43,241 nt of DNA, taken from the IMG/VR virus record IMGVR_UViG_2648501299_000008, one strand, 5' to 3'. This document shows positions 6,319-41,836 of the stretch, in pieces; the first letter of the stretch is position 1, and every line of letters starts with the position of its first letter. The notes beneath the pieces are model-generated. The model was not told the origin of the DNA and searched no databases. It was given only the letters and a program-made list of their open reading frames with translations. Made by a program: the position numbers and the translations under genes. The DNA is from a virus. Its lineage: Duplodnaviria; Heunggongvirae; Uroviricota; Caudoviricetes.

Positions 6319-7400
6319 GTATTGAATCCCGCCAGGTTCTGGTAGAAGGCATATGGCTGAACGGAGAATGCTTCAGGCGGCATCAGCGTCATGCGTGCAT
6401 GGGTGCCGTAGTCATCGCGCATATAGGTGACTTCTGCCAGTAGCAATTCAGTCTTCGGCAACCGTAAGGTGGGAAGATCAACGGGGATCAATGTGTTTGG
6501 TTCCCACAGTTTCCCGTCTTTATCCCGCCAGGAATCGATGGTTACCGAGAGCTGTTTTGAACGTCCGTACCGCCGGTTCATTTCCCAGTCGATCGCACTT
6601 TGTGCCTGTTGAGTAGCCATCAGGGTACTTTCCACAATCGATATATGTTTTCGGTACCGCATGCGGGCGGCCTCCGGATCTCTCGCCGTTGCCAGAGTCA
6701 CAGCGTCATAGGCCGTATCAGGCGAATACCCTGCAATTGGAGAAACGCTCATTGATACACCGACATAATCTGAAAACCTGTCAGCCATCGATTTGCGGTA
6801 GTATGCCTGCTCGACATTTACCCCTTCGGCTATCCCACTTGCCGCACGACGTGTTCCCACCCGGGTCAGTAACAGGTTTCCATCGGGCTGATCGTAGTAA
6901 AGCAGAGCAGACCATCTGGCCACCCGATCGATGACTTCTTGCGGAGACTCACCCCAGTTCAGAGTGAACTGGGGTACCTTCACAAGTTCATCAACATCCG
7001 TGGTTACGGTGATGCCGTAGTAGGATGCCAGGCGAGAAGCAATTTCAAGCGCATTACTGGCATTGATGACGTTGTTAGGCCACTCGGCTGAGCAATCCAC
7101 CAGGTCCTGACATTTGCTCCTGCCCGTGGCGCGGACCTCATGGCGGGAGCGCGATAGTGCGGGTTCCCAGTCATCAACATATCCCGTCAGTGTCAGATCA
7201 TCTCCGATACGAACTTCACAAGACATTCCCTCTTCAACGAGTTGACGATCTTCGTTGCCAGGGAAGTAATCCATTAGCCCAAGATCGAAATCAGAGGGAA
7301 AACGCTCAATACCCCGCGTTACCCGGACAGAATCCCACCCCTCGATGATTTTGCCGTCGACCGTCAAAGAAACAACATCCAGATCGCTGTCTGCATTCAT
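6315..7400 (-). CDS. tail/baseplate hub protein (Mu gp44 / P2 gpD-like)
   Basis: 361 aa between the DNA-circulation-like gene and the spike gene. Assignment by synteny and size. Confidence 0.6.
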   Translation of the reverse strand: MNADSDLDVVSLTVDGKIIEGWDSVRVTRGIERFPSDFDLGLMDYFPGNEDRQLVEEGMSCEVRIGDDLTLTGYVDDWEPALSRSRHEVRATGRSKCQDLVDCSAEWPNNVINASNALEIASRLASYYGITVTTDVDELVKVPQFTLNWGESPQEVIDRVARWSALLYYDQPDGNLLLTRVGTRRAASGIAEGVNVEQAYYRKSMADRFSDYVGVSMSVSPIAGYSPDTAYDAVTLATARDPEAARMRYRKHISIVESTLMATQQAQSAIDWEMNRRYGRSKQLSVTIDSWRDKDGKLWEPNTLIPVDLPTLRLPKTELLLAEVTYMRDDYGTHARMTLMPPEAFSVQPYAFYQNLAGFNT

Positions 7401-8800
7401 TGCCTCAGTACCTTCATGGTTGTCGGCATAAACGCCGGATGCGGTACGCGCGCTTCCTGTACCAGTTCATCTGCACGGGTGGCATCCTGGTATAATCGGT
7501 TTGCCAGCGTCAGCGCCGGAAGCGGCTGAGCGGTAGTAACCTGCAGAAGCTCGCTCAGACCAGAAGCACGCTCACTCATCGTAGAAAGGAATGCCGATCT
7601 GACGGCGAGAAGCGCGTTATACATATCATCGTCTGCGCGGTCTCCAGCCAGAACCAGCGCCGTATCAAGTTGCACAGAAACTCGTTGAGTTAACTCTTCT
7701 GCCTCGTCTGTACTGGCTGGTCTGGAGTCCGCAGCGGCACTGGTCATGGCACCAGTACATAGCACAACAATCAGCGTGTTCATGGTCGCCGAAATCGCTT
7801 TGCTGCTGTCGGACTGCTGGTACTCCGTGCTGATTGAATTAGCCAGTTTTTCCAGCGCTGTGATTCGGTCATTAACGCTGCCGGCGCTGTTAAGAATTGC
7901 GTTTACCACGTCGGCGACGCCCTGGACAAACTCATCAGGTGTGTTGGAGCTGCTAAGCTGGCTCGACCTGTCGGTAACATTTTTCCGGTCCATTACCGAC
8001 TGGGCTGTTACCTTGTCAGCCAGTGCTCTCTCATCATCCACATCAGCAACTGACGATTTGCCAGCAACAGCAGAGGAACTACCGCCCACAGAGCCTTTAC
8101 TGTAACGTCCGTACCGGGTATTCCCGAACGTGGAGTTCAGGACATTGCTGAGATTCGTGACCTGACTGATGGTGCTGTCAACCATGTTAGTCCAGAACGT
8201 GACCGTGCCTCTGATGGTGTTTATAGCCTGTGTGACACCGCGGATTTCACTCTTAACTCTGGCAATCGTGCTCAGCACAGCAGTGCTGACCAGTTTCAGA
8301 TAGTTGGTTTTCACCGTGGCGCCTGCAACGGTACTGCCCGTGACAGCAAACACTTTAAGCCCTGATTCAATTGCCATCAGGGTAAATTCAAATACTCGCC
8401 CGTTCTCCATCGAACCGGAAATACGCAAACCATTCTCAGGGATGGAAACCGTTAATTCGCCCAGTGTCGGATGGACAAGCGTACCGCTACCTTTTTGTTC
8501 ACAGGCTTCAATCAGTGACTGGCGCTGCGTGATAGCATCGCCGCCGCCGTAAACCTGGCTGTTCTGGATCAAGAAACCGCGAATAACAAATCGCCGTGTT
8601 GCCCGCCCGATATCCTCTATCCAGGCTGTATCACGGTAGGGATATTCATGTACCGCCTGGCGTCGGCCGTGGCTCCCTTCCTCAGCAACAATTGCAAATG
8701 GCACACCTCTGAATGAGCTGGGCCGTAACTGCCCCTGCCAGTCATCGCTGGTATCTCCCCCCAAAAGAGAAGTTATTGCGTCCTGGATAATTGACGGCAT
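7397..8800 (-). CDS. Mu gp43-like DNA circulation protein
   Basis: About 467 aa from the ATG at 8798-8800, with GGAGG 4 nt upstream. Lies directly downstream of the tape measure region as in Mu-like tails. Confidence 0.65.
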   Translation of the reverse strand: MPSIIQDAITSLLGGDTSDDWQGQLRPSSFRGVPFAIVAEEGSHGRRQAVHEYPYRDTAWIEDIGRATRRFVIRGFLIQNSQVYGGGDAITQRQSLIEACEQKGSGTLVHPTLGELTVSIPENGLRISGSMENGRVFEFTLMAIESGLKVFAVTGSTVAGATVKTNYLKLVSTAVLSTIARVKSEIRGVTQAINTIRGTVTFWTNMVDSTISQVTNLSNVLNSTFGNTRYGRYSKGSVGGSSSAVAGKSSVADVDDERALADKVTAQSVMDRKNVTDRSSQLSSSNTPDEFVQGVADVVNAILNSAGSVNDRITALEKLANSISTEYQQSDSSKAISATMNTLIVVLCTGAMTSAAADSRPASTDEAEELTQRVSVQLDTALVLAGDRADDDMYNALLAVRSAFLSTMSERASGLSELLQVTTAQPLPALTLANRLYQDATRADELVQEARVPHPAFMPTTMKVLRQ

Positions 8801-27909: not shown

Positions 27910-27936
27910 ACAAAAAACCCGCTCGATGGCGGGTTC
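27910..27936 (-). terminator. strong rho-independent terminator just downstream of the Q-like gene
   Basis: Minus-strand AACCCGC-catcga-GCGGGTT followed by UUUUUUG. Confidence 0.6.
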
Positions 27937-28000
27937 TTAATTCTTTGTCGACCTACGAAGCTATGGCGACGATATCAGATTTACATGAAATATATGCGTT

Positions 28001-30381: not shown

Positions 30382-30633
30382 TTAATATTTGTAGCGGTTT
30401 TCAGGAAGAAATGCGTATTCGTAAGTGAAGTTGAACGCCTCACTTTCAGTGTTAAATCGGCGCTCGGTGATATCACTCCAGTGTCCCCTGAAATACTTCT
30501 GAGCCCCCCACTTTCCCTCGAATGGGAATACAGCATACGCACCGACATACCGGTTATCAGCATGCGGATCTGGATATGACTCGCGTTCTGCCAGAACGTA
30601 AAACTTGATGCCGCTTACAATGAGGCAGCCCAT
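30382..30633 (-). CDS. hypothetical small protein (third gene of a coupled three-gene operon)
   Basis: 83 aa; ATGA overlap with the upstream ORF stop. Confidence 0.4.
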   Translation of the reverse strand: MGCLIVSGIKFYVLAERESYPDPHADNRYVGAYAVFPFEGKWGAQKYFRGHWSDITERRFNTESEAFNFTYEYAFLPENRYKY

Positions 30634-30890
30634 CACTTCTTCTCGTTCTGCGCGGCCATATCCAGGTATCGCGGGTCGGATGATTTCGGTAGAGTCAGGC
30701 TTTGCTCTCGGTAGTAACGAACTCGCTCCATGAAGTATTCACGCAGATGATCTGGCTGCTCACGAGCTACCTGCTCAGCGATAACCGGCATGTTCAGGCG
30801 CTCTTTGTACGCTACGCCACTGGCAGCCAGGTCCACGTTAGCCTTGTCCTGCTCTTCTTTCGATTTTTCTGCGATATTAAAATGTGACAT
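30633..30890 (-). CDS. hypothetical small protein (second gene of the operon)
   Basis: 85 aa; TAATG overlap with the upstream ORF. Confidence 0.4.
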
Positions 30891-31072
30891 TAATCTGCTG
30901 TTCTCCCTCTTTTTTTCCTCGTTTCGTAAGGAGACCTGTAACCATCTACAGGGGCCACATCATCAGCCTCAAAGCGCTTAGCGTTTGCTATATCGGATTG
31001 AAGCCAGTGTTTTTTATATCGCTTCCTCGCCGCTTTGTATTTTTCGGCAGGTGTCATTTCTTCGTTTGACAT
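30890..31072 (-). CDS. hypothetical small basic protein (first gene of the operon)
   Basis: 60 aa from the ATG at 31070-31072 with AAGGGGA Shine-Dalgarno; preceded by a TATAAT element at 31100-31105. Confidence 0.4.
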
Positions 31073-31086
31073 AAAAAATCCCCTTG

Positions 31087-31106
31087 AGTTATGGAGGGGA
31101 TTATAG
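31087..31106 (-). promoter_or_regulatory. candidate -10 element and leader (TATAATCCCCTCC) for the small-gene operon
   Basis: Minus-strand TATAAT followed by CCCCTCC...AAGGGGA leader. A near-identical promoter-leader precedes the secreted-protein gene at 31569. Confidence 0.35.
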
Positions 31107-31227
31107 GTCAGGCCGCGATTTGTTTCGACTGGCATAGTTCCGGCAGGTTAGCCCTCACCAGTGCTACAGCGAACGGGGGCACAGCCAAAAATAAAAACCG
31201 CCTAACCTGGTTGAAATTCGTTCTATT

Positions 31228-31569
31228 TTATTTGCAGGTAAATTGCACTACATCACCCTGAGACATTTGAAAGAATCGGTAATCACCATCTCCACGTCTT
31301 TGTATAATATTGCCCTCTTTAGTCGCACCAGATGGGTATGTCTTTCCTTCCGGTTTTTCTGGCCTAATCTTGCTTGTGGTGTAAGAAATGGTCCCAAAGT
31401 TAACTGTTATTGAATTTCCGATGTCAGTTATATTTGCCTTTACTTCGCCGGATTTTACTTCATTTGAGGTCATACTCCTTGCTATTCCAGAGCATACATA
31501 TTCCTTTGCTTCAACGGCATGGGGCATAAGAAAGCCAATTCCTAACAACGTGATCGCCAAATATTTCAC
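31228..31569 (-). CDS. secreted small protein, MliC/PliC-like lysozyme-inhibitor candidate
   Basis: 113 aa from GTG at 31567-31569 with AAGGAG Shine-Dalgarno. Predicted signal peptide MKYLAITLLGIGFLMPHAVEA|KEYVC. Mature protein has EY.C near the N-terminus, a central YPSGATKEG segment and a C-terminal Cys, reminiscent of the MliC/PliC family (from memory). Confidence 0.45.
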   Translation of the reverse strand: MKYLAITLLGIGFLMPHAVEAKEYVCSGIARSMTSNEVKSGEVKANITDIGNSITVNFGTISYTTSKIRPEKPEGKTYPSGATKEGNIIQRRGDGDYRFFQMSQGDVVQFTCK

Positions 31570-31597
31570 TTTATCTTCTCCTTGATGAGTCCCCCTC

Positions 31598-31620
31598 GAT
31601 ACTTTGGGAGGGATTATACA
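31598..31620 (-). promoter_or_regulatory. candidate promoter (TGTATAAT) and leader for the secreted-protein gene
   Basis: Minus-strand TGTATAAT (31613-31620) followed by CCCTCCC...GAGGGGGA, in which the C-rich stretch can pair with the Shine-Dalgarno region. Confidence 0.35.
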
Positions 31621-31731
31621 AAAGAAAAGTGTGGTCATGGCTATTTTTGGTAATGTTATTCGATGATAATTCACTTTATTTTTTAAATCATAATGCTATA
31701 TTTCTTTCACCCCTTGCTTGCAAGGTACAAC

Positions 31732-31823
31732 GGAGGGTTGGCCGAGTGGTTGATGGCACCTCACTGATAATGAGGCGTACGGGCTATAAACCCGTACCGC
31801 GGGTTCGAACCCCGCACCCTATT
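31732..31823 (+). tRNA. tRNA-like element, class-II (long variable arm) architecture, anticodon GAU; probably degenerate
   Basis: Hand fold: acceptor GGAGGGT/ACCCTAT (5 Watson-Crick pairs, one G-U, one G-A mismatch); 3-bp D stem GCC/GGC with GAGTGGTTGAT loop; anticodon stem CCTCA/TGAGG with loop CTGATAA; 23-nt variable arm with 7-bp stem; T arm GCGGG-TTCGAAC-CCCGC; no encoded CCA. Confidence 0.45.
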
Positions 31824-31824
31824 T

Positions 31825-31860
31825 AAGGGGTCGACAAATGTCGGCCCCTTCTTCGTTTTA
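31825..31860 (+). terminator. hairpin/terminator immediately 3' of the tRNA-like element
   Basis: 10-bp stem AAGGGGTCGA...TCGGCCCCTT followed by CTTCGTTTTA. Confidence 0.4.
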
Positions 31861-32045: not shown

Positions 32046-32523
32046 TTAGTCCTTCACAAAGATAATCCAATGGGTTTTGTCGTTCTTCCCAGTACGCTGA
32101 CCAATTGCAGGTTTCACGTCAGTAAGAGCTAAAATCTGGCTAACCGGGATCTGCGTTTCGTTCCATTTGAAAATAAGCACGCCGCGCGGCCACAGCACCC
32201 GAAACGCTTCTTTGAAACCGGCGCGTAAGTCAGAGCGCCACGTTTTTTTTGTTCAGTCGCCCGTATTTTTTACCCATCCAGGCAGACTGGCCCACGCGCT
32301 CGAGGTGCGGCGGGTCAAACACCACAACCGGAAAAGAAGAATCAGCGAACGGCAGTGAACGAAAGTCTGAAATCAGGTCTGGACTGATAACCAGGCGGCG
32401 ACCGTCGCACAGTTCGTGCTCTTCGGCGCGAATATCAGTGAACACGGCGCGGGTGTCCTGCTTGTTGAACCAGAACATGCGGGAGCCGCAGCACATATCA
32501 AGAATCGTCGTGTTGTCGGTCAT
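32046..32523 (-). pseudogene. DNA adenine-methyltransferase-like gene interrupted by a frameshift in an A8 homopolymer
   Basis: N-terminal frame (ATG 32521-32523) encodes ILDMCCGS and VVVFDPPH motifs, then stops at 32230 just after the A8 run (T8 on plus strand, 32243-32250). The adjacent frame continues ...TWRSDLRAGFKEAFRVLWPRGVLIFKWNE... to a stop at 32046. Removing one A gives a continuous ORF of about 159 aa. Confidence 0.55.
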
Positions 32524-32831
32524 ACTGATGCTCTCCCGTAAAACGCCAGTACACGCTGCATAGCCGGACTTGTGCGGCATACGGATGTGACCATGTTTTT
32601 TCTCACTTTCGATTTGAGTTGCTTGATATTCTGCTCGCCACCGGGCTGAAGCGAATAGACCGGGCGATGCGGCTCGCCAGTGCGGATTACTACCGTTTTG
32701 CGTACTAGGTGAAGCAGCAGGTTGTGTGCCTTCTTGCAGTCGCATCCCAGCAGGCTCTGAACCTGACGAGGGGTTATGGTCTGGTTAACCCGAAGGAAAT
32801 CGACGATTGCCCACAGTGATTTGCTTGCCAT
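32520..32831 (-). CDS. hypothetical protein (possible winged-helix DNA-binding protein) downstream of the DnaC-like gene
   Basis: 103 aa with GAGGG Shine-Dalgarno; coupled to the flanking genes. Confidence 0.4.
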   Translation of the reverse strand: MASKSLWAIVDFLRVNQTITPRQVQSLLGCDCKKAHNLLLHLVRKTVVIRTGEPHRPVYSLQPGGEQNIKQLKSKVRKNMVTSVCRTSPAMQRVLAFYGRASV

Positions 32832-41400: not shown

Positions 41401-41836
41401 TTTTGACGAGGAGACGGGCTTGGAAGTTCGTGTGCGCCCTGACCTTGAGATCGACCTGGATGGCGTGCGTATAGGTGCAGACCTGAAAACCATCAGCATG
41501 TGGAATGTTAAGCAGGAAAGCCTGCGCGCCAGGCTACACCGGGAAATTATTGAACGTGATTATCACCTGAGCGCGGCTATGTACTGCGAAACCGCAGCGC
41601 TGGATCAGTTCTTCTGGATTTTCGTCAACAAAGACGAGAACTACCACTGGATCGCCATCATCGAGGCATCCGCTGAACTACTGGAGCTGGGTATGCTCGA
41701 GTACCGCAAAGCGATGCGCAATATCGCAACCGGATTCGACACAGGTGAATGGCCAGCGCCAATCACTGCTGACTACACCGACGAACTGAACGACTTCGAC
41801 CTGCGCCGCCTTGAAGCGCTGCGTACTCAGGCATAA
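38447..41836 (+). CDS. recE: RecE-like exonuclease with long N-terminal extension
   Basis: 1129 aa. The C-terminal roughly 300 aa looks like a PD-(D/E)xK / YqaJ-type exonuclease domain by eye. The N-terminal roughly 800 aa is acidic and low-complexity in parts. Followed directly by recT. Confidence 0.7.
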   Translation: MEFFNVVKATQKSGKQDAVVWFTAKTEARANLMLDVALEDAGIETGRGKDYAKPIRTDFPVVDGLPKEGEVDFTWCDRYELQDDGRTWLPKAAGVSTGSVYAPSTPTPTVIVEDATASEIVPVENRTPAVRFAVHLMNDKYQTHVTKEQQLAASEMSLDEGNTYLHSLLVARNDVPATAKLSLNAEWKMIRAVKDIFTPDEEHEPRLIAAFMSDWVNTDAGDRNQLVEDWRSGKLQLLKTETSNAADVTTGQDLTVEDGIQTDENGRAEGGVVDGEVDTEEQSQQTQQPNLIVVATLPFRQRVLAQFIGDGEYLYHIDAGQKNEIVRLEMDTDDAYVQNLLLAAENVEAFKKAIEHDIHKVVNAVKKVFPVDGKIPELATLIQFLKLWFATDHIDRGILVREWAAGNRISSVQRTDSGTNADGGYVTDRGPDAHHTLDTLDLEIACALLPMDFNHFEIPGSILRRAKEIVTKKEEPWKSWSNILRNQPGVLGVNRTAIFNLVRIAPENIHLTPVAHLEFVNQTMTAAFNSAVELLPLHEAEPAAQEIPQPEGKESPRKSFCTHEENLQRVREEGARRRAEEAAAQPQKVEQELVKNVGNGIFDVTALLQNSATHGTKKATETTSNVQVQETVSDEKQAGDEVQPGESSLESGEESDTSQKDDVNQNTDSVAKNSDSVSQTEPVAAQTEPEAQSDEPAVVYPAYFEPGRYEGLPNEVYHAANGISSTQVKDARVSLMYFNARHVEKTIVKERSAVLDMGYLVHALALQPELLDAEFSVEPVIPEGAFTTAATLRAFIDEHNASLPALLSADDIKVLLEEYNATLPPQVPLGANLEETAQNYMALPADFQRIDGDQKQTATAMKACIKEYNATLPPPVKTSGSRDALLEQLAIINPDLVAQEAQKPAPLKVSGTKADMIQAVKAVKPDAVFADELLDAWRDNPEGKVLVTRQQLSTALNIQKALLAHPTAGMLLTHPSRAVEVSYFGFDEETGLEVRVRPDLEIDLDGVRIGADLKTISMWNVKQESLRARLHREIIERDYHLSAAMYCETAALDQFFWIFVNKDENYHWIAIIEASAELLELGMLEYRKAMRNIATGFDTGEWPAPITADYTDELNDFDLRRLEALRTQA

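Follow-up and report, generated by a model that had tools for sequence, protein, structure and literature searches.

Three small, tightly coupled genes in a 43,241-nt stretch of viral DNA (IMG/VR record IMGVR_UViG_2648501299_000008, hereafter the window) are headed by a leader in which a TATAAT hexamer runs directly into a hairpin, and a second copy of this leader precedes a neighbouring gene for a secreted protein. The middle gene of the trio is, judged by homology, a gene for the theta subunit of DNA polymerase III (Pol III). Our preferred reading, held with moderate confidence, is that the region is an accessory theta module in the nin region of a lambda-like Escherichia coli prophage, headed by a portable promoter-plus-hairpin cassette which insulates the genes behind it and at which such genes recombine. 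The leader itself is real and recurrent, and is apparently an undescribed variant of the promoter/stem-loop cassette.

The theta homologue and its partners

All coordinates are those of the window; the trio, both leaders and the secreted-protein gene lie on the minus strand. With its ATG placed after the ribosome-binding site, orf1 (31072..30890) encodes a basic protein of 60 aa; an alternative reading from 31135 would give 81 aa and crosses the leader. It is followed by orf2 (30890..30633, 85 aa) and orf3 (30633..30382, 83 aa from its ATG). The GTG one codon 5′ of the orf3 ATG is not conserved, E. coli H6 having GTAATG there. Adjacent genes overlap by one base, as TAATG between orf1 and orf2 and as TGATG between orf2 and orf3. 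These overlaps bear out a preliminary description of this DNA, which had listed three tightly coupled open reading frames of 60, 85 and 83 aa; it had the TAATG overlap right, but the other overlap it named, ATGA, is in fact TGATG. The ratios of non-synonymous to synonymous substitution (0.16 for orf1, 0.09 for orf2 and 0.07 for orf3, the last from a single pair) indicate that purifying selection acts on all three genes.

By its sequence, orf2 is a homologue of the Pol III theta subunit (HolE) and of Hot of phage P1. It matches Pfam PF06440 (1.4e-34, 118.1 bits against a cut-off of 34.6), passes the cut-off of NCBIfam PRK10969 (104.5 bits against 97) and matches phrog_1105 (9.9e-39). Residues 3-76 align with residues 3-76 of P1 Hot (PDB 1SE7/2IDO, E = 2.8e-33), which is the whole folded core, and this match is better than that of residues 5-69 with E. 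coli theta (E = 3.5e-19). The RefSeq product name is likewise 'DNA polymerase III subunit theta'. The trio had been described as unknown small proteins, which no longer applies to its middle member given the Pfam, NCBIfam and PDB matches. As a small subunit of the Pol III core, theta binds the proofreading subunit epsilon and makes it more stable (PMC2528190), and Hot is described as able to substitute for theta in epsilon stabilisation (Chikova and Schaaper 2005, as cited in PMC2528190). Binding and stabilisation of epsilon by the orf2 product can be predicted from its homology to theta and Hot. Work on phage homologues of theta goes back to P1 Hot, and such genes are annotated as a matter of routine. 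In this respect the gene content is ordinary, the cargo being another instance of the already known Hot/theta kind.

The conservation of the trio was examined in 80 IMG/VR loci encoding close theta homologues. In 29 of them an orf3 homologue lies downstream of theta, which it overlaps by one base, and in 13 theta has a member of the orf1 family on its upstream side; only seven loci have both partners, and all of these carry a 108-aa form of orf1. The exact set of 60-aa orf1, theta and orf3 was seen only in four near-identical E. coli genomes. Moreover, some homology breakpoints among E. coli relatives are located inside theta. The trio is therefore not conserved as a unit in related phages; from these neighbourhoods, theta appears as the anchor and orf1 and orf3 as optional partners.

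The orf1 product matches phrog_16632 (3e-34, function unknown). Its homologues form 21 clusters from Klebsiella, Citrobacter, Kluyvera, Enterobacter, Raoultella and E. coli, and occur in 60-aa, 95-aa and 108-aa forms that have in common the C-terminus ANAxRF...KRGRTAD, the hallmark of the family, always ending as a TAATG overlap with theta. An AlphaFold model of orf1 has a single long helix (residues 8-35) and a poorly ordered basic tail (predicted local distance difference test score, pLDDT, 66). The only match of orf3 is to a PHROG family of unknown function. Both homologue sets are small and together span Klebsiella, Citrobacter, Kluyvera, Enterobacter, Raoultella, Salmonella and E. coli. 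Sequence searches of Pfam, NCBIfam, PHROGs, PADLOC and PDB returned nothing beyond 'unknown' for the function of either protein, and structure searches gave weak and inconsistent matches. HK639_61, the gene 3′ of theta in phage HK639, was considered as an orf3 homologue and rejected as not homologous. Being conserved, coupled and essentially found only beside theta, orf1 and orf3 are candidate partners of the Pol III proofreading sub-complex.

Annotation of both partners is uneven. Whilst orf3 is missing from the annotation of RefSeq NZ_AP021894, another genome identical to it does have the gene annotated. Phage HK639 has an unannotated 60-aa orf1 homologue at about 41586-41768 of NC_016158 (1320-1502 of locus L085).

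The leader family and its two copies in the window

Copy B of the leader (31070..31111) comprises the stop codon of an upstream methyltransferase remnant (TGA, 31110-31108), TATAAT (31105-31100), a hairpin, a T-rich spacer and the orf1 ATG at 31072. Its stem pairs 31102-31095 with 31084-31077 around a 10-nt loop, with its G-rich arm serving as the ribosome-binding site 7 nt 5′ of the ATG. Copy A (31583..31624) has its TATAAT at 31618-31613, a weaker hairpin within 31613-31590 and no T-rich tail. The secreted-protein gene behind it has its own ribosome-binding site, AAGGAG, near the GTG start, 3′ of and outside the hairpin. Copy A closely resembles the leader found immediately before theta in E. 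coli H6. In both copies a C-rich run comes after TATAAT and a G-rich run 8-10 nt further on.

The 12-mer by itself is not significant in the window, and a covariance model, R1, was used in its place. Built from 34 leaders of other phages with both window copies excluded, it was used to scan the whole window with filters off. Exactly two sites were found in 43 kb: copy B, with a score of 41.1 bits (E = 3.7e-8), and copy A, with one of 31.6 bits (E = 1.3e-5). No other match on the minus strand has an E-value better than 3.2. This bears out the near-duplicate leader reported in the preliminary description, and confirms by sequence similarity that the two copies are homologous, of a regulatory type, and belong to a wider leader family.

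The pattern of this family 5′ of theta is TATAAT-CC(C/T)(C/T)TC…loop…GAGGGG(G)ATT…ATG, usually with a T-rich spacer before the ATG. The typical stem, AAUCCCCUC/GAGGGGAUU, has 9-10 bp and a folding energy of -13 to -15 kcal/mol, starts at the AAT of TATAAT and encloses a loop, 6-10 nt in the general plan of the leader, that varies from 4 to 10 nt across the family. Its 3′ arm is the ribosome-binding site, and in typical variants the ATG follows 4-8 nt after the G-run. The hexamer is TATAAT in all but a few (TACAAT) of more than 100 distinct leaders, although just its AAT pairs in the stem. Where stems are imperfect, the asymmetries are nearly all T opposite G, and G·U pairs are mostly kept on the sense strand. 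A MAFFT alignment puts the 10-bp stem class out of register, and ViennaRNA was therefore used to check the stem of each sequence separately.

The leader is found immediately 5′ of theta in about 38 of the 80 theta-anchored loci. It also heads orf1 plus theta (including in phage HK639), an 82-aa gene plus theta, a DUF1643 gene plus theta, and the secreted-protein gene. An unbiased pattern scan of IMG/VR gave at least 106 distinct leaders among the matches listed. Within these 106, theta is the first gene behind the leader in 37 and the second in 27, so that 64 head a theta module; 36 have no theta within 1.5 kb, and six have too little downstream sequence. Other first genes encode a lipoprotein, a 125-aa secreted protein and membrane proteins of 166-169 aa. 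Identical leader variants are found before different first genes, and leaders occur in 58 unrelated upstream contexts. A compact fusion of -10 box, terminator-like hairpin and ribosome-binding site thus recurs before different enterobacterial prophage genes. A scan of one genome per species gave approximately 14 enterobacterial matches, the clear ones from Enterobacteriaceae; the remaining matches, scattered over unrelated phyla, were treated as chance hairpins. The leader was not found 5′ of P1 hot or K-12 holE, or at the lambda tR2/ninB region. Rfam has no family matching it at the gathering threshold or at E≤10, and the motif was not found in the literature in any relevant context.

Two further features were considered and set aside as general properties of the leader. 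A conserved leader peptide starting at an ATG just before TATAAT (MYNP…) is limited to variants in a GTGATG context, and an extended outer helix formed by TGATG/CATCA pairing is limited to one variant class.

Several observations touch on the relation of the leader to the genes behind it. In protein P0001, an orf3 homologue, an N-terminal extension (MYNPSQSIEGDSS) is the leader read in frame; on the contig concerned the leader lies immediately before orf3, with no theta in between. The long forms of orf1 (108 and 95 aa) are not preceded by the leader (loci L025, L038, L045, L050, L053, L082, L083, L070 and L072). Approximately 30-60 nt 5′ of these forms there is instead a canonical terminator with a GC stem and T-tract, followed by a -10-like TATGAT, which are the parts of the leader (terminator and -10) in conventional order. 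A tiny conserved frame (MAKSAAERKSA or MPKSAAERKAAQLTR, each ending at a stop codon) is found 10-45 nt 5′ of many leaders (L011, L013, L022-L024, L054 and others); it loosely resembles the N-terminus of orf1 and could be what is left of a truncated orf1-like gene. At 7356-7560 of locus L099, and also in L120 and L163, a truncated theta (about the first 37 codons) is fused in frame to a methyltransferase C-terminal remnant and followed by a fully palindromic leader, TATAATCCCCTC-N4-GAGGGGATTATA, at the junction with a convergent gene. This junction looks like two modules of opposite orientation joined within the hairpin.

Function of the leader

The C-rich arm of the hairpin occupies positions 1-7 after TATAAT. 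Transcription starting 7-8 nt past the hexamer would fall on an A in the loop (about 31092 in copy B and 31605 in copy A). A transcript started from TATAAT would therefore be without the C-rich arm, and the hairpin could then act solely on RNA arriving from upstream. Such incoming transcripts would hold both arms, and the hairpin would fold, acting as a weak intrinsic terminator or burying the ribosome-binding site. Transcripts started at TATAAT, having no 5′ arm, would neither terminate themselves nor mask the ribosome-binding site. The module would thus have a weak promoter to itself and be shielded from its neighbours, with orf1 and orf3 translated by coupling to theta. The leader would double as a recombination joint at which different first genes are exchanged, which would explain why two leader copies flank the inserted secreted-protein gene. 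Promoter activity, termination and masking are what we infer from the arrangement of the parts, and as a self-insulating mechanism this is plausible.

Several features point to a promoter. TATAAT is nearly invariant even though AAT alone pairs, and locus L071 keeps the hexamer though the 3′ arm has been lost. A purine occupies the 7th or 8th base after TATAAT in 98 of the 106 leaders among the matches listed. Copy B offers a promoter-like match, TCGAAA-17-TATAAT (10/12). Some leader copies stand directly behind a canonical terminator and would for that reason need a promoter of their own. An own promoter is also favoured because genes under purifying selection would otherwise be shut off by a stem-loop of -13 to -15 kcal/mol covering the ribosome-binding site. 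Termination is suggested by the T-tract: at least five T in the 8 nt after the G-run are found in 55% of 109 distinct leaders, whereas among 844 ordinary spacers that separate a ribosome-binding site from its start codon in the same loci the share is 3%. The HK639 copy is labelled 'terminator' in GenBank and is flagged as terminator-like by our scan. Moreover, leaders whose gene has its own ribosome-binding site retain the hairpin, and in some of them (L124) a T-run follows it.

A number of results weigh against this mechanism. Across the 58 upstream contexts, the best match to TTGACA at 16-18 nt has a mean of 2.67, compared with 2.59-2.64 at control offsets, and there is no enrichment of an extended -10; since neither element is selected, any promoter would be weak or activator-dependent. 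Nor was an AT-rich or otherwise selected upstream region seen across these contexts. A promoter scan found none in the HK639 copy, and no transcript-start data for phages carrying the element were found in the literature. The commonest leader variant (…GAGGGGGATTCATCATG) has a poor T-tract and copy A has none, whilst copy B, with four G-C pairs only and a 10-nt loop, is not flagged as a terminator. Folding gave -12.5 kcal/mol for copy B (z = -1.9; stem alone -9.6), and for copy A a value (-10.4 kcal/mol; stem alone -8.1) no better than that of shuffled sequences. Finally, although 92% of cells in the alignment pair, there are no two-sided pair changes and shuffles do as well, so that it is conservation, and not compensatory change, that speaks for the hairpin.

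The element might instead be an intrinsic terminator only, filling the role of lambda tR2-tR4 and delaying expression until antitermination, in which case TATAAT would not be a promoter and the G-rich arm would serve as a ribosome-binding site by coincidence. We consider this rather unlikely. The T-tract enrichment, the HK639 annotation and scan flag, the lack of -35 enrichment, the position between the replication genes and a ninB-like gene, and the fully palindromic leaders at convergent gene junctions all fit a terminator. However, a terminator has no need of an invariant TATAAT of which AAT alone pairs, nor would the hexamer be expected to outlast the 3′ arm as it does in L071. The commonest variant and copy A are without a T-tract, a further terminator would be redundant where a strong canonical one already lies directly upstream, and the sequence is unrelated to lambda tR2.

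The preliminary description had proposed a different arrangement, in which the mRNA begun at TATAAT folds its own leader and the C-rich stretch masks the ribosome-binding site, as a shared post-transcriptional control. A switch of this kind could be a thermosensor, or one controlled by a protein or small RNA. In copy B, as in most of the family, the hairpin does cover the ribosome-binding site, and the G·U pairs retained on the sense strand of imperfect stems would suit an RNA structure. However, a sigma-70 start 5-9 nt downstream excludes the C-rich arm, and three bases of the hexamer itself, AAT, belong to the stem; a promoter at TATAAT and C-rich pairing are mutually exclusive in one RNA. 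The pairing of the C-rich stretch with the Shine-Dalgarno region, claimed for both leaders, holds for copy B and fails for copy A, where the working ribosome-binding site is outside the hairpin. With neither covariation nor an Rfam family in its favour, we think such a switch improbable.

Slightly less probable still is that a dimeric protein binds the DNA at the inverted repeat AATCCCCTC…GAGGGGATT, whether as a repressor whose site overlaps the -10 or as a recombination protein by which the cassettes are moved. The palindrome is near-perfect, extends to TATAATCCCCTC/GAGGGGATTATA in some loci and coincides with mosaic junctions, and a similar suggestion was made for the GGGG…CCCC stems of the promoter-early stem-loop (PeSL) cassettes of T4-type phages (PMC2839356). 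Against it, a loop varying from 4 to 10 nt would not be tolerable in a rigid dimer site, the T-opposite-G asymmetries preserve RNA pairing but break DNA symmetry, and no candidate protein travels with the element. That the trio is anti-defence or toxin-antitoxin-like cargo, as had also been suggested from its compact layout, is very improbable indeed, since its conserved core is a theta/Hot homologue (the sole Pfam family found in the trio, with no toxin or antitoxin domain), PADLOC has no match for any of the three proteins, and orf1 and orf3 are dispensable partners, one or both of them lacking in most theta loci.

Mosaic setting and comparison with known cassettes

A 1.4-kb segment of the region is present at 100% identity in three complete genomes, and at 99.9% in a fourth, out of 5,426. 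In one of the identical genomes the RefSeq order is LexA-family repressor, replication genes, a frameshifted methyltransferase gene, an opposite-strand tRNA, the secreted-protein gene, orf1 and theta, followed by DUF1367, DUF1364, RusA, YlcG and antiterminator Q. It is because of this order that the trio is placed in the nin region of the early-right operon, which extends from the replication genes to Q, the window as a whole being a prophage of E. coli of the lambda-like kind.

The secreted-protein gene (31228..31569; 113 aa, with a signal peptide and a GTG start) is a cassette inserted between the leader copies. Between it and copy B lie the last 25 or so codons of a DNA cytosine methyltransferase gene (31108..31185, minus strand; AVPPFAVALVRANLPELCQSKQIAA and stop), recognised by comparison with the C-terminus of the intact 662-aa gene of E. 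coli H6. The remnant marks the point at which the remainder of that gene gave way to the secreted-protein cassette. The junction consisting of the methyltransferase stop, TGACC and TATAAT is also present in L010, L012, L016 and L041. E. coli ECCWS199 has the secreted-protein cassette and the remnant followed by DinI, its homology to the window stopping near 31112, at the edge of copy B. In L071, a 71% homologue of the secreted-protein gene is found directly 5′ of theta. Taken together, these junctions indicate that the secreted-protein gene and its own leader copy are an insertion 5′ of a pre-existing leader-orf1-theta module, and the leader therefore occurs twice, as direct repeats flanking the insert.

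Other features of the prophage were noted in passing. A class I S-adenosylmethionine-dependent methyltransferase gene (32230-32745, minus strand), upstream of the tRNA, is frameshifted in RefSeq; with the remnant at 31108-31185, the prophage holds two decayed methyltransferase genes. The tRNA (31732-31823, plus strand, 92 nt), called as Ile with anticodon GAU, has an unusually long variable arm. Placed a short way upstream of copy A and antisense to the early operon, it is also conserved in E. coli ECCWS199. A terminator-like hairpin follows it (31825-31850, plus strand), and together the tRNA 3′ half and this hairpin weakly resemble isrK of Rfam, at 17 bits and below threshold. An Rfam match to isrJ (27913-27985, minus strand, 58.7 bits) lies approximately 16 nt 3′ of the antiterminator Q gene (about 28690-28001). 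In Salmonella, isrJ is an island-encoded small RNA that binds Hfq. Lambda-like phages have the short pR′-tR′ leader RNA at this place, downstream of Q, and the match may be that transcript of the prophage.

Four known systems bear comparison with the module. As regards the cargo, orf2 resembles P1 Hot and E. coli HolE in passing the family cut-offs and aligning over the folded core; what sets it apart from both is its place in a lambda-like prophage's nin region, its coupling to two small genes and the leader at the head of the module. The leader is lacking at P1 hot, which follows an annotated late promoter, LPhot, and at chromosomal holE. As regards position, lambda tR2, upstream of ninB, occupies the same place in the early-right operon and is likewise a T-tailed hairpin, with the next gene's ribosome-binding site following at once. 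Unlike the leader, it has its hairpin apart from the ribosome-binding site and has no -10 hexamer, and the two share no sequence similarity.

Morons are genes of lambdoid phages with their own promoter and terminator (Juhala et al. 2000; reviewed in PMC3594210), and are not considered reliant on conserved sequences at their flanks (PMC2839356). The cargo described here is similarly non-essential and present or absent among relatives, the secreted-protein cassette inserted into the methyltransferase gene being an example, and it is likely to be expressed by itself from the prophage. In contrast to morons, one conserved cassette, the leader, recurs. As for moron features within the window, a promoter-like site was found for copy B only, and the scan gave no terminator-like site after the secreted-protein gene or orf3.

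The closest known analogue of the leader is the PeSL, which combines a sigma-70 promoter with a stem-loop of G/C runs containing G-T pairs (Arbiol et al. 2010, PMC2839356). Its promoter and terminator activities were shown experimentally, and its stem may overlap or follow the -10. PeSLs terminate upstream transcription and mediate shuffling of the small genes that they flank (PMC2839356). The leader likewise has a consensus -10 within a short conserved intergenic motif, a stable stem-loop of G/C runs with G-T pairs overlapping the -10, and a ribosome-binding site and ATG at its 3′ end. It too is associated with variable small genes, direct repeats flanking an insert and a recombination joint, as seen in copies A and B and in the break in ECCWS199. 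It differs in having no -35 or UP region, in that its 3′ arm is itself the ribosome-binding site, and in being found in temperate lambda-like prophages of Enterobacteriaceae, where it is mainly tied to one module, that of theta. Promoter, terminator and mini-circle formation belong to the PeSL, the leader being known here from its sequence. In its fullest form, which we put forward tentatively as possible rather than probable, the analogy would make the leader a self-insulating lambda-like PeSL counterpart of approximately 40 nt that terminates or translationally silences incoming RNA, launches transcripts from within its loop that escape both, allows expression in the prophage state off the lytic cascade for theta and for any gene exchanged behind it, and as a patch of homology moves cassettes from prophage to prophage, with orf1 and orf3 as partners of epsilon-theta. 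If this is true, the leader shows how an accessory gene becomes insulated from the phage operon around it, and the idea of the mobile regulatory cassette extends from lytic T4-type phages to temperate lambda-like ones.

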